Of a stretch of 51,747 nt of DNA, positions 3,451 through 47,689 are shown piece by piece (position 1 is the first letter of the stretch; each line of letters opens with the position of its first letter). Source of the DNA: a virus (taxonomy: Duplodnaviria > Caudoviricetes); IMG/VR virus record IMGVR_UViG_3300046779_000926, positions 1 through 51,747 of that record; one strand, given 5' to 3'. Made by a program: the position numbers and the translations under genes. The notes under the pieces are model-generated. The model was given only the letters and a program-made list of their open reading frames with translations. It did no database searches and had not been told where the DNA came from.

Positions 3451-4262
3451 ACATCATAGGATTAGGAAATATTGGCTGCTCAATAGCCAAACAATTTGCT
3501 AAATATAAACAATTCTCTACCCATCTTGTTGATACTGAAAATCAAGGTGGTAGCTGCTTTGTATTGCCAGAATTTAACAAAGCAGAAGATTATGAGAACA
3601 AATACGCCAATCTTCCTTTTGAATTAGAGGAAGATTTAACTGTCATACTATCTGGTGATGAATTGATGTGTTGTTCTGTCTTACGTATTTTAGAACAATA
3701 CAGAAATCTTGACCTACACGTTATATATGTAAAACCAGATACAAAGTTTTTAACTCAAACACAGATTATGATAGACCGTACTGTGCGTGGTGTACTACAA
3801 GAATTAACAAGGTCAGCAAAAATTTCTTCAATGTTTCTTGTTGACTTAAAAAAAGTTTCTGATATAGTAGGTAAAGTGGCTCTTAAGGACAGAGAGATAA
3901 AACAATACGAACTTATTGCCACTTCATATTATATGAAAAATATGTTTGATAATATTCAGCCAGTTCTCGACAAGACAGTTGATAGTCCAATCACATATTC
4001 TATAAAAACTTTTGGAATTATGGATTTGGATAGTGGAGAAGAAAAGTTCTTTTACCCCCTTGACGAGATACGCGAGAAGAGATATAGTTACTACATCAAC
4101 AAAGCAAAGCTAGACTCCGATGTTGACCTCTCGGACCACATAGAGCATCAAATAAGTTCTAAGTTTGTGGAAAACCTAAAGGTTTCATATGCAGTCTACG
4201 AAAGTCCACTAGAGCAATCTAGCGTGTTCATAGAAGTAAAAACACCACATATTCAATCATGA
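3447..4262 (+). CDS. Divergent tubulin/FtsZ-fold protein
   Basis: N-terminal MNIIGLGNIGCSIA, HLVDT, VIYVKPD and MFLVD segments track FtsZ strands; the GGGTG signature loop is absent. Confidence 0.5.
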   Translation: MNIIGLGNIGCSIAKQFAKYKQFSTHLVDTENQGGSCFVLPEFNKAEDYENKYANLPFELEEDLTVILSGDELMCCSVLRILEQYRNLDLHVIYVKPDTKFLTQTQIMIDRTVRGVLQELTRSAKISSMFLVDLKKVSDIVGKVALKDREIKQYELIATSYYMKNMFDNIQPVLDKTVDSPITYSIKTFGIMDLDSGEEKFFYPLDEIREKRYSYYINKAKLDSDVDLSDHIEHQISSKFVENLKVSYAVYESPLEQSSVFIEVKTPHIQS

Positions 4263-41379: not shown

Positions 41380-41408
41380 TTGACACCTTAAACCATCTGC
41401 GATATAGT
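41380..41408 (+). promoter_or_regulatory. sigma70-like promoter, probably leaderless transcript
   Basis: TTGACA-17nt-TATAGT; ATG 6 nt after the -10 box, no SD. Confidence 0.65.
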
Positions 41409-41414
41409 ATAAGC

Positions 41415-42041
41415 ATGAAGATTGAAGAACGCCTCGCCGCTCTCTCCTCTTTGCCTCTCAAGGGTTGGGAGATTAATTTTTACAAGTCTTTCAAGGATGC
41501 CACCTCTCTCACAGAGAAGCAGTTGGCTACGCTTGAAAAGATTGAAAAGCGTTTTGCTGCTGGTAAGCAGAAGGAACGTGCAGATTGGATTGCTTCGTGG
41601 GATAACGAGAAGCGTAACCGTTTCGTGTTTGCTTGTAAGTATCTTCGCTCGCATAGCGTTCCAAGAAAGTATCGTGTCAAGTATATGGCTATTACAAGTT
41701 ATCTCCATGACCCTGTAGCCTATATTCCCGATGAAAAGTCATATCGTACTATTGTGGAGAATTCATATGTTGTCAAGGCTTATAATGCGTATTGCGCTGC
41801 TGCCAAGTATTCTGTTGGCGATATGGTTTATGTGAATAAGTCACAGTATGCTACAAAGAAGGGCAAGCCTTCCGATAAGGAATTTCATTGGACAGGCATC
41901 ATCACAGAGGTTAGAGAGAGTGATGCCGTTTCTCTTCATACCCGTGATTATGTTGTAGAGCCTATCACGCCTGTTTTGTACGAGACTGCTCCTCACATTG
42001 TTAAGGAGTATTGTATGCGCCGCTTTGTTGCAGGAGGCTAA
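41415..42041 (+). CDS. Hypothetical early protein with a C-terminal SH3/KOW-like domain
   Basis: WE..F..S.....LTEKQ...L.KI N-terminal motif; KYSVGDMVYV. Confidence 0.7.
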   Translation: MKIEERLAALSSLPLKGWEINFYKSFKDATSLTEKQLATLEKIEKRFAAGKQKERADWIASWDNEKRNRFVFACKYLRSHSVPRKYRVKYMAITSYLHDPVAYIPDEKSYRTIVENSYVVKAYNAYCAAAKYSVGDMVYVNKSQYATKKGKPSDKEFHWTGIITEVRESDAVSLHTRDYVVEPITPVLYETAPHIVKEYCMRRFVAGG

Positions 42042-42280
42042 ATTTAAATAAGACTCGCTATGGATTTATTTCCTTGTTGTTATAATTATATCGTATCACG
42101 GGGCTGATACACTAATATTTATGGTTATCCCACGGGTCTGTTCTTTTCCCGTGGCTCTCTCAATATAGATTCAGTTTTGACTATATTGATGATAGATTAA
42201 GAACTAGCGATTAGACGGCGAAAACAGTCAAAAGCCCCACCAATTTAAATCTGTAGCGAGTTTTATTTAAGTTTAGTCTC
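42034..42280 (+). ncRNA. Candidate structured ncRNA: tRNA-like ends (42100-42242) enclosed in a 35-bp stem
   Basis: 42034-68 pairs with 42246-80 using only Watson-Crick and G.U pairs; GGGGCT...AGCCCC-ACCA; two internal hairpins; TGTTATAAT at 42078-86. Confidence 0.6.
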
Positions 42281-42416
42281 ATGCACAAAATCTTTGATGT
42301 AAAGCCCTGTCCCAACAAAAGTTATTACCATGTGCAAGCCATATGGGTTGCTCACGGTACTAGTCCAACTTGGGCTACATTGCATAAATGCGTTATACCA
42401 CAAGAATGGATGGATT

Positions 42417-42925: not shown

Positions 42926-43453
42926 ATGGTTGAAGTTATATGCGGCGGTATGTTCGCTGGAAAATCTGAAATGCTTATCCACAGGCTTAAGCGCGCCGCA
43001 TATGCGAAGAAGAAGATTGTAGCATTTAAGCCAGCAATCGACAATCGCTATTCTGTTAGCGATATTGCCTCTCATTCGGGACATACGATTAATTGTATTG
43101 CCGTTGCAAATGCTGGAGATATCCTAAAATATCTAAAGGATGAACAAGTCGTCGGTATAGACGAAGCGCAGTTCTTTGACAGTTATATAATCGATGTGGT
43201 TGATATCCTTCAAAGAAAGGGTATAGACGTTTATATCGCTGGTTTAGACCTTGATTCAATGGGTAAGCCATTTGGTAGTATGCCTTACTTGCTTTCAGTA
43301 GCAGAAAAGGTTACAAAGATATCAGCGGTGTGCATGAGTTGTGGAGCAGATGCTACACGCTCGCAACGTCTGATTAAGACAACCGAACAAGTTTTAGTGG
43401 GTGCAGCAGATAGTTATGAGGCTCGTTGCTTCAATTGCTGGTATCCACAATAA
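42926..43453 (+). CDS. tdk: Thymidine kinase
   Basis: GGMFAGKS, FKPAID.RY, IDEAQFF, AGLDLD...PF, C..CG, Y.ARC..C. Confidence 0.95.
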   Translation: MVEVICGGMFAGKSEMLIHRLKRAAYAKKKIVAFKPAIDNRYSVSDIASHSGHTINCIAVANAGDILKYLKDEQVVGIDEAQFFDSYIIDVVDILQRKGIDVYIAGLDLDSMGKPFGSMPYLLSVAEKVTKISAVCMSCGADATRSQRLIKTTEQVLVGAADSYEARCFNCWYPQ

Positions 43454-43457
43454 TTTA

Positions 43458-43828
43458 GGGGGCGTAAAGGTTTCGACAGAGTTAAAGATATTGATAGTGC
43501 AGGTAGTCAATGATTTCTGACTATAAAGTAATCAAAATGTTAAGTGCCAATAATACAGCACACTTCGATTCTTCCGCTCTTCTAGCAGCATAGTATCGAT
43601 GGGGTTTTCCAAGACCTTATAACCAAACTTGGAATAACAGGTCAAACCTGCGAAAACAAAAGGGAAATGGTTATCCATCTTTTAGATGGTGGAACGCAAC
43701 AGGACTGTAAGCGTTGGTGGAACCACAGTCTATCTTTGTTTGTTTCTGATAGTAAATAAACTAAACCTGTGAATGACTTGACATTGAATTGGCTTTGGAC
43801 GCGGGTTCGACTCCCGCCGCCTCCACCA
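43458..43828 (+). ncRNA. ssrA: tmRNA (SsrA); tag reading frame 43546-43593 encodes ANNTAHFDSSALLAA*
   Basis: 5' GGGGGCGTAAAGGTTTCGAC; 3' GGACGCGGGTTCGACTCCCGCCGCCTCCACCA; G3.U70 pair; tag ends in LAA. Confidence 0.93.
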
Positions 43829-44012: not shown

Positions 44013-44199
44013 AATTGGAGATATTGTCCATGCTCGCGATACAAAAGATTGGTATGGACTTATTACCAATGTCGTGGGTAAAGATTCTTATGTTCAATGG
44101 TTTGAAAAAGAATATGAACGTAATGGATGGTTTATATACTATTTGTTAGAGAAGGTGAACTTCAAAGAATCCCTTGACAACCTAAACGAGAGAGGTTAA
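44002..44199 (+). CDS. SH3/KOW-like protein
   Basis: MQFEIGDIVH..YGLIT..YVQWF..LEKV. Confidence 0.6.
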   Translation: MQFEIGDIVHARDTKDWYGLITNVVGKDSYVQWFEKEYERNGWFIYYLLEKVNFKESLDNLNERG

Positions 44200-44202
44200 G
44201 AT
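44174..44202 (+). promoter_or_regulatory. sigma70-like promoter, probably leaderless transcript
   Basis: TTGACA-17nt-TAAGAT; ATG 44209 is 6 nt downstream. Confidence 0.65.
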
Positions 44203-44208
44203 AAGAAC

Positions 44209-44415
44209 ATGCGATACCTTCAATACTCCGAACCCGATATCGATGGAAAACAAAAGATTGTTCGTGTTTCTGTTCAAGAAGCGATAAGGAGTGCAAAGGC
44301 TACTGCTATTTATGTCGGCTACTTTTACGAGAATGACGAAGAAGCACTACAAGATTTTATCGCTGTAAATTGGGCTTCTTACACGGATGCCTACCTTGAT
44401 GAAGAAAGTTCTTGA
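44209..44415 (+). CDS. Hypothetical protein
   Basis: ORF directly behind the promoter. Confidence 0.65.
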   Translation: MRYLQYSEPDIDGKQKIVRVSVQEAIRSAKATAIYVGYFYENDEEALQDFIAVNWASYTDAYLDEESS

Positions 44416-44440
44416 CAAGAGGAACGAGAGCGGATAAGAT
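44412..44440 (+). promoter_or_regulatory. sigma70-like promoter for tRNA-Ser
   Basis: TTGACA-17nt-TAAGAT. Confidence 0.7.
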
Positions 44441-44450
44441 ATAAAATGAT

Positions 44451-44540
44451 GGAAGCATGACCGAGAGGCTTAAGGTAGCACTTTGCTAAAGTGCCGTGCC
44501 ATAAAAAGCACCGCAGGTTCAAATCCTGCTGCTTCCGCCA
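44451..44540 (+). tRNA. tRNA-Ser(GCT)
   Basis: GGAAGCA/TGCTTCC-G-CCA; GCACT-TTGCTAA-AGTGC; long variable arm. Confidence 0.93.
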
Positions 44541-44575
44541 CTTAAAAAGAGAACAAAAAAAGTTTTCTAAACCCC

Positions 44576-44714
44576 TTGACGGGGGAGATAAGGCGAGATA
44601 AGATATAAGGGTGAGGGCAAGAAACCTCACGGCTCTTTGAAAACCCAATAAGAAATGTGAACGAAAAGAAAGTTTAAGAAACCTCTTGACGGGAGACTTG
44701 AGAGAGGTTAAGAT
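44576..44714 (+). promoter_or_regulatory. Tandem sigma70-like promoters with a boxB/boxA-like leader for the tRNA operon
   Basis: TTGACG-17nt-TAAGAT at 44576-604 and 44686-714; hairpin GTGAGG/CCTCAC then GCTCTTTGAAAA at 44632-43. Confidence 0.65.
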
Positions 44715-44899: not shown

Positions 44900-44975
44900 A
44901 GGCGGGTAGCGCAGCGGTCAGCGCAGTTGGCTTATATCCAATTGGTCGTGGGTTCAAATCCCACCCCGCCTACCA
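44900..44975 (+). tRNA. tRNA-Ile(TAT)
   Basis: AGGCGGG/CCCGCCT-A-CCA; GTTGG-CTTATAT-CCAAT. Confidence 0.9.
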
Positions 44976-45006
44976 TTTCAATGATTGTGAGATAATCAAT
45001 CTGACT

Positions 45007-45285
45007 CGCTGGAAAGACAGCGGTTTTTCAACTTTTCAAGAGGAAATAATGAAGTTCTCCGATTTTCTTGGCAACAACAAGATTTCTGCTGGAATGAAAA
45101 TCACACTTAAAAATGATAGCGAAAGTATTCATACTTTTTGGGTTGGAGACTGCACTCCTTATCACGAACCATCTGATAATGATGGTGGCTTTGGTTGGGA
45201 TAATTATCTTGAAGAGTATGGTGATTGGAATGTAGTTACTGCAATCCAATTCTAATAAAAAGACACGCTGGAAAGACAGCGGTTT
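45007..45285 (+). repeat. 20-bp direct repeat CGCTGGAAAGACAGCGGTTT (45007-26 and 45266-85), each copy a small hairpin
   Basis: Identical copies flank ORF 45049-45255; stem CGCTG/CAGCG, loop GAAAGA. Confidence 0.85.
45049..45255 (+). CDS. Small hypothetical protein within the tRNA cluster
   Basis: AGAGGA RBS; 68 aa. Confidence 0.65.
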   Translation: MKFSDFLGNNKISAGMKITLKNDSESIHTFWVGDCTPYHEPSDNDGGFGWDNYLEEYGDWNVVTAIQF

Positions 45286-47086: not shown

Positions 47087-47689
47087 ATGAAAAGCGATTT
47101 CTCCATCAAGTCCATTTCTAAAAAGCAAGCAACCGACATTCTCAAGGAGTATCACTACCTCTCTTCTATCTCGCGTGGATTTAAGAGCGGGCACAACTAC
47201 GGACTTTTTAAGAACGACGTTCTTTGCGGCGTCTGTATTTTTACAGGTCTACCTGCACCCGAAATTGCAAAGGGTTGCTTTGGCCTTGAACGCGCCAATC
47301 AAGATGGTCTTTTTGAACTCTCGCGCCTGTGCCTTTCTCCCGATGTTCAGAGCGAAGAACATAACCTTGCTGGCTGGTTTTCCGCAAGGGCAATCAAGCA
47401 GTTGTGCAAGGATACCAACGTGCGTGCTATCCTTTCCTATGCTGACAACGACTTTCATAGCGGCGTTGTATATGCTGCAACAAATTGGAAGTATTATGGT
47501 CTGACCGACATTAAGAAGGACTTTTGGTTTAAGCAGGAAGATGGAACCTTTATCAAGCACAATCGCGGCAAGGTGAAGGGAGCAGAAGGCGAATGGCGAG
47601 AGCGTAGCCGCAAGCATCGTTTCTTGAAGGTGTTTGACCGTTCTCTCAATGTTCTGTGGAACGAGCAGAAGTGGGGTAGCAATGTTTGA
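47087..47689 (+). CDS. Mom-family (GNAT-fold) DNA modification enzyme
   Basis: YHYL, YGLF....GVCIF, ELSRLCL, ILSYAD...HSGVVYAATNWKYYG, KHRF. Confidence 0.75.
   Translation: MKSDFSIKSISKKQATDILKEYHYLSSISRGFKSGHNYGLFKNDVLCGVCIFTGLPAPEIAKGCFGLERANQDGLFELSRLCLSPDVQSEEHNLAGWFSARAIKQLCKDTNVRAILSYADNDFHSGVVYAATNWKYYGLTDIKKDFWFKQEDGTFIKHNRGKVKGAEGEWRERSRKHRFLKVFDRSLNVLWNEQKWGSNV

Follow-up and report, generated by a model that had tools for sequence, protein, structure and literature searches.

What is encoded by the 247 nt at positions 42034–42280, between ORF1 and the small ORFs that lead to thymidine kinase? The window, by which we mean the whole 51,747-nt stretch analysed here, is a virus record of 52 kb; it carries genes for replication and nucleotide metabolism, one tmRNA and 13 tRNAs. 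A first-pass annotation, made from the letters of this DNA, described the element as a structured RNA, in which a tRNA mimic of 143 nt is released from a 35-bp stem. We have compared the element with its counterparts in related phages, with contigs from RNA libraries and with known RNA families.

Fold of the element and its counterparts in related phages

The arms of the element, at 42034–42068 and 42246–42280 on the + strand, form 35 contiguous pairs. Thirty are Watson-Crick pairs, five are G.U (5′ positions 42037, 42043, 42052, 42061 and 42062) and there are no mismatches. The element ranks first among the inverted repeats of the window and contains its only stem of at least 18 bp closing a loop of 90–330 nt. 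No shuffled sequence was as stable as the 247-nt fold (0 of 200; z = −7.84), and the 143-nt core folds with z = −3.04. Pair probabilities are 0.89–1.0 for the outer helix, 0.90–0.96 for the inner, acceptor-like helix and 0.84–1.0 for hairpins A, B and C. The stem, its five G.U pairs and the inner hairpins all lie where the first-pass annotation had put them. Neither Rfam, tried at the gathering score and at E values up to 10, nor ARAGORN matched the element.

Within the terminal helix, a 7-bp block (42045–42051, paired with 42263–42269) is invariant. All seven pairs are unchanged in the homologues L179 and L262, and in each of these three RNAs, which we call type A, the block begins 11 bp in from where the contiguous helix ends. 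Just inside the helix is CCUUGUUGU (42072–42080), present in the window, L179 and L262 and mostly unpaired (unpaired probability 0.36–0.98). The core is closed by P1, the acceptor-like helix (42100–42105 with 42233–42238). The 5′ strand of P1 is followed by hairpin A (42106–42129), by hairpin B (42130–42154), the loop of which (42138–42146) is the 5′ strand of a pseudoknot, and by helix C (42155–42195). Helix C has a variable tip and a conserved base, in which CUCUC lies opposite GA-AG, after UGAUGA. The pseudoknot 3′ strand (42198–42207) ends in a conserved UAG. The 3′ hairpin (42214–42229) has a 7-nt GCGA(A/G)AA loop and one bulged base; with 15 of 16 positions identical in L262, it is the most conserved sequence of the RNA. 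The 3′ strand of P1 runs into ACCA (42233–42242). The 3′ arm then ends flush against the next small ORF, whose start codon is at 42281.

Scans of virus and metagenome data found four near-identical copies. The window and one close relative differ at a single position within the 247-nt element, compared with 25 positions in ORF1 and 16 across 644 nt of downstream sequence. At least two variants occur among the copies: C42150T changes a G-C pair of hairpin B to G.U, and A42226G is on the bulge of the 3′ hairpin. Both of these are benign. The DNA records holding the element are mostly from aquatic metagenomes.

Diverged homologues were reached via neighbouring genes, after searches on the tRNA-like ends had failed. 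In those searches only near-identical copies were true (1 of 9, 1 of 34 and 3 of 32 matches) and the rest were due to chance. A pattern combining the arm and the loop motif gave five loci, two true and three by chance, and ORF1 as the query gave one close relative. No copy besides those of the close relative and L179 turned up at 101 loci whose tmRNA start is similar or at 58 that have a relative of a 198-aa gene. Prokaryote genomes gave nothing for one marker, and all 14 cellular thymidine kinase loci were without the RNA. Two weak DNA matches in related records were rejected as chance. A clade-specific thymidine kinase pattern returned eight viral loci, six of them in the clade. L262 was found (E ~4e-10) by a covariance model built exclusively from window-like cores.

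L262 carries a full homologue of 288 nt directly behind its ORF1, overlapping the ORF1 stop codon as in the window. Ten of the outermost 11 helix pairs are changed on both sides in L262 and one on a single side; none is broken. For L179 the equivalent figures are five double changes, two single changes and four unchanged pairs, again with none broken. On these comparisons, the turnover of the outer helix is a mark of selection on pairing rather than on the repeat sequence. Pairs of the type-A core were counted by anchored positions, MAFFT having misaligned parts of the type-A pair. In L262, P1 has two compensatory pairs and two extra pairs, making 8 bp, and is followed by a U-run and no CCA. 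Hairpin A keeps its outer four pairs, one of which is compensatory; one of the inner four is compensatory, one is the same and two are broken. Hairpin B keeps six of seven pairs, with two compensatory and one broken. At helix C, 4/4 base pairs are unchanged around a central mismatch and the tip is 33 nt longer. Pairs of the 3′ hairpin are unchanged. For the pseudoknot, nine positions were compared: four are the same, two have double changes, two have single changes and one is broken. The double changes back the pseudoknot that had been proposed between the loop at 42140–42145 and the segment at 42199–42204. Homologues in which to look for covariation had been wanted from the outset; L262 and L179 supply the paired changes, from three distinct sequences for the outer helix and two for the core, the latter too few for a statistical test.

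The L179 RNA is a short form of 135 nt (L179:11587–11721, + strand; z = −9.3), with a helix of about 42 bp and a 43-nt loop containing CCUUGUUGU. Thus, the outer helix, the invariant block and CCUUGUUGU are kept and there is no core. The RNA is directly behind a near-consensus TTGACG-17-TATAAT site and its neighbour gene is 69% identical to that of the window. There is no adjacent ORF1, and the contig ends some 630 nt later. The same contig has, at L179:12152–12352, a 66-aa ORF that by eye resembles a Flp-type pilin.

Taken together, a fold more stable than its shuffles and covariation in L262 bear out the conserved, structured RNA that the first-pass annotation placed on the + strand. The element is very probably a real RNA gene.

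The same slot is occupied by a different RNA in three phages of the clade that are more distant from the window. This type-B RNA, of 210–245 nt, is between the ORF1 homologue and thymidine kinase in L264 (about 3551–3763, − strand), L265 (3247–3490, + strand; the same record as L259) and L269 (3240–3469, + strand). The folds have z values of −1.9, −5.4 and −6.9, respectively. In layout, type B combines a closing helix and two hairpins with two pseudoknot helices. One hairpin is on the 3′ side and has a loop of 7 nt. The loop of the other forms the first pseudoknot helix, by pairing with a stretch that ends at a conserved UAG; all seven of these pairs form in all three RNAs and two columns covary. 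In all, type B has two covarying pseudoknot helices. Covariance models of types A and B, run with filters off, did not detect each other in either direction. Thus, the two types share a slot and resemble each other in layout, with homology not established. Rfam gave no match to the relatives' RNAs at E values up to 0.5, and type-B RNA is a candidate ribozyme or riboswitch.

Five of the six clade loci reached via thymidine kinase have an ORF1 homologue with a long-stem RNA directly behind it, and L267 has neither; gene order among such kin is not independent evidence. One relative, G007, is a complete 184-kb genome with T4-type capsid, portal, sheath and terminase genes. The stem in its slot is the only one of at least 18 bp around a 25–330 nt loop in the whole genome. 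Type B is present in G007 and type A is absent, as are a tmRNA and a reverse transcriptase. The window model gave no match in five related records, G007 included, nor did the type-B model in another 100 sources. Cultured phages include none that is close: DNA comparison gave nothing meaningful, ORF1 has no relative among them, and the best cultured-phage match to the window polymerase is 30% identical.

Contigs from river RNA libraries

The RNA data are from five of the six RNA runs in which a small share of the region occurs; they are riverine, date from 2018–2019 and possibly belong to one campaign. One near-identical contig of 176–272 nt lies over the element in each of the five libraries examined. 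These contigs span 42061–42236, 42066–42249, 42043–42294, 42053–42260 and 42010–42281. Single contigs span the core and no joint was seen in the RNA runs. The contigs show that molecules of about 250 nt, including the arms and uncut across the core, are present; they carry no strand, ends or level, and are compatible with DNA carry-over and with a shorter form as well. The tmRNA was covered in all four RNA runs examined for it.

A 143-nt product cut out at 42100 and 42242, as first proposed, is not supported by these contigs. Contigs cross 42100 in 5/5 runs, by at least 31 letters, and cross the CCA end at 42242 in 2/5. The contig ends are scattered (5′, 42010–42066; 3′, 42236–42294) and cannot mark RNA ends. 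Two of the helix G.U pairs become Watson-Crick pairs in the sequences of three runs. The same three runs have T42250C, which gives an A.C mismatch where both arms are covered. The flanking genes, which DNA runs cover, are uncovered in the RNA runs apart from 63 letters of one contig, which is then unlike the window; we do not count missing flank cover as evidence.

Promoter-like sites, ORF1 and the neighbouring genes

A σ70-type promoter-like site, TTGACA-17-TATAGT, is at 41380–41408 on the + strand and matches the consensus at 11 of 12 positions. It is the likely source of a transcript containing ORF1 and the RNA, judging by sequence. Similar sites are upstream of the homologous units in L179, L262, L264 and L265. 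An extended −10 element that had been proposed as the start of the RNA (42078–42086) is present. However, it has no −35 element, unlike the TTGACA/TTGACG-type sites nearby, and is not kept in L262 or L179. The extended −10 lies inside the outer stem, so a transcript beginning there could not form that stem.

ORF1 (41415–42041, + strand) encodes 208 aa and its stop codon is inside the 5′ arm of the RNA. Searches of Pfam and PHROG gave no family, and its 12 homologues are all unnamed. The predicted structure (model pLDDT 80.6) has a helical N-terminal part and a C-terminal SH3/Tudor-like barrel. A fold search against the PDB found nothing at E ≤ 0.001, with weak PWWP/Tudor rows only. The SH3/Tudor-like barrel is a fold class that often binds nucleic acid. 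Judged by eye, small SH3-like proteins are apparently common in these phages.

Thymidine kinase (42926–43453, + strand) and the tmRNA (43458–43828, + strand; Rfam RF00023), which is ahead of 13 tRNA genes, are context and not part of the RNA. The tmRNA is found in the window and its close relative and is absent from G007. Four tandem TTGAC(A/G)-17-TAAGAT promoter-like sites (44174–44714) precede the tRNA cluster. One of the tRNAs (44900–44975) has a TAT anticodon, for direct reading of AUA, and related phages have it too. A 68-aa ORF is inserted between tRNA-Ile and tRNA-Leu, with a repeated short hairpin either side (45006–45023 and 45266–45281); the insert is apparently missing in the close relative L044. 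Directly downstream of the tRNA cluster is a Mom-family DNA modification gene (47087–47689).

The motif CTATTTA is strongly enriched 11–29 nt upstream of genes on the coding strand. It precedes 7 of 73 window ORFs (1.1 expected) and 27 of 215 G007 ORFs (2.9 expected), and is a candidate phage-specific promoter. CTATTTA is the reverse sense of the T4-type late promoter. A late promoter within the invariant helix block was considered and rejected; the enriched motif is CTATTTA and the arm is without its C.

Possible functions and comparison with known RNAs

Our preferred reading, to which we give a probability of about 0.4, is that the element encodes a conserved non-coding RNA of about 250 nt, in a clade of large T4-like aquatic phages, that acts in trans as a protein-binding scaffold or decoy, possibly with the ORF1 protein. 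The RNA would be made from the 41380 promoter as the 3′ part of the ORF1 message, and would survive with both ends shielded by the helix of 28–35 bp. The pseudoknot, the invariant 3′ hairpin and the single-stranded CCUUGUUGU would be its binding surfaces. Binding of a partner is preferred to switching because alternative folds carry no weight and the gene that follows is not constant among loci. The ORF1 protein would be the leading, if tentative, candidate partner, on the basis of gene order and the predicted Tudor/SH3-like barrel; the absence of an adjacent ORF1 in L179 weakens the partnership. A broader and, we think, unlikely extension is a modular RNA machine. Here, a long-helix chassis would carry swappable pseudoknotted cores (two folds or none). 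Its action would be that of a ribonucleoprotein formed with the adjacent Tudor/SH3-like protein, of a new ribozyme, or of a decoy against a host defence or expression factor.

The position of the RNA suggests a cis-acting leader, such as an attenuator, antiterminator or riboswitch, for the small genes, thymidine kinase and the tmRNA/tRNA cluster. All five clade loci that have the RNA and extend as far as thymidine kinase carry it ahead of that gene, and in L259/L265 the ribosome-binding site of the kinase is within the 3′ arm. A U-run follows the closing stem in L264, and the next start codon abuts the helix in the window. However, the downstream gene differs between loci and no terminator-like site was called at the element. 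A conformational switch was part of the first-pass annotation, but its alternative hairpin has a pair probability of 0.03 and no competing fold has weight; a 35-bp helix would, moreover, be expected to lock one state. We consider control in cis improbable.

Somewhat less probable is a base-pairing small RNA that would target host mRNAs at their A/C-rich ribosome-binding regions through CCUUGUUGU, with the helix providing stability. GcvB is the comparison for such pairing. CCUUGUUGU is the only loop sequence common to all three type-A RNAs, the short L179 form included, and its mostly unpaired state would suit this role. The phage window has no excess of matching or complementary sites (10 found, 8.8 expected). 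Similar letters in type B are paired and covarying, and the conserved core would be left unexplained.

We see an outside chance of a ribozyme, self-cleaving or acting in trans, for example in processing of the neighbouring tRNA transcript. The compact pseudoknotted core has invariant unpaired bases, the tRNA cluster is nearby, and the two covarying pseudoknot helices of type B are a topology typical of ribozymes. Against this, the single RNA contigs that span the core, with no joint in the RNA runs, indicate that uncut molecules exist. Known ribozymes (hammerhead, HDV-like, twister, pistol, hatchet, group I and RNase P) gave no consensus-core match in Rfam. By eye, a hammerhead core and the conserved regions of RNase P are also missing, as is a bulged P7 like that of group I introns.

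The tRNA mimic of the first-pass annotation, 143 nt long, CCA-ended and cut from the stem by RNase III and RNase P, is now very improbable. The window and its near-identical kin do have a G-rich helix followed by ACCA, the real tRNAs of the window encode CCA, and a helix this long could be an RNase III substrate. However, the acceptor-like helix has 6 bp in place of 7, and L262 has an 8-bp helix and a U-run where the mimic would need CCA. The T-arm-like 3′ hairpin exists, with a pair probability of ~0.36, but is not a T-psi-C arm: there is no T-psi-C loop, and three unpaired bases separate the hairpin from the helix. RNA contigs bridge both proposed ends. In L179 the outer stem persists without a core, so it is not just packaging for a tRNA-like RNA. 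L262 largely refutes the model, and finding a G-rich helix with CCA in a single genome does not suffice to identify a tRNA mimic.

Similarly remote is a 6S-like decoy that would occupy the host RNA polymerase, its helix and bubble imitating an open promoter. The long closing helix is followed by an A/U-rich single strand with UAUAAU in the window. This hexamer is not kept in L262 or L179, the bubble is asymmetric (31 versus 7 nt), the inner helix has 6 bp with no long second helix, and Rfam gave no 6S match. Finally, a MITE-like insertion or chance inverted repeat, suggested by terminal inverted arms between genes and by a position relative to one small gene that differs between the window and L179, can be dismissed: the element is single copy in the window, arm sequences turn over with pairing kept, no direct repeat is flush with both ends, and the element is conserved more strongly than its coding flanks.

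Among known RNAs, tmRNA (RF00023) is similar in the G-rich first helix strand and the pseudoknot; its gene is 1.2 kb from the element, and the same RNA runs cover both. The element differs in having no T-psi-C arm, no conserved CCA and no Rfam or ARAGORN match; it also lacks G3.U70, having G3-C70 by sequence, as first noted. Moreover, the phage has a separate, true tmRNA. GOLLD, ROOL, IMES and manA, large ornate RNAs without an assigned function from phages and metagenomes, are structured and pseudoknotted and, like the element, often near tRNA genes (compare 10.1101/2024.12.08.627333). Size and topology are different, and neither the window nor its relatives gave an Rfam match to them. Retron msr-msd RNAs are likewise structured RNAs closed by long inverted repeats. 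A retron RNA was rejected, there being no reverse transcriptase among the 71 window proteins; PF00078 was found in none of five related records (one complete), in a search for which the control was positive in 3 of 14 genomes. A Y RNA was also rejected, with no TROVE (Ro60) protein among the 71 window proteins or 110 G007 proteins of 150–1200 aa, and YrlA did not match the element.

We found no description of this RNA in the literature. In the part of PMC10690425 compared here, candidates are at most 151 nt and no motif or contig name matches, although a fragment of the RNA may be listed in the alignment archives of that study. The phage RNA family is real and apparently undescribed. The locus offers two apparently undescribed, covarying, pseudoknotted folds of 210–290 nt, a natural deletion form (L179) that isolates a minimal unit, and a candidate protein partner. 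The RNAs and the partner are small enough for in vitro probing, cleavage and binding assays.

The closest parallels in kind are T4 rnaC (species 1) and rnaD (species 2) (AF158101), likewise structured phage RNAs beside a tRNA cluster; as described in the parts of PMC3014915 and PMC9697503 drawn on here, both are stable RNAs still with no known role. The window model did not match the rnaC/rnaD locus. The window RNA also differs from rnaC, in which a canonical T-psi-C arm stacks on an acceptor-like helix and the fold includes no long helix at the flanks. Phage stable RNAs beyond tRNA and tmRNA have been a long-standing blank, of which T4 rnaC and rnaD are examples, and the RNA described here belongs to that already known kind, the phage stable RNA of unknown function.
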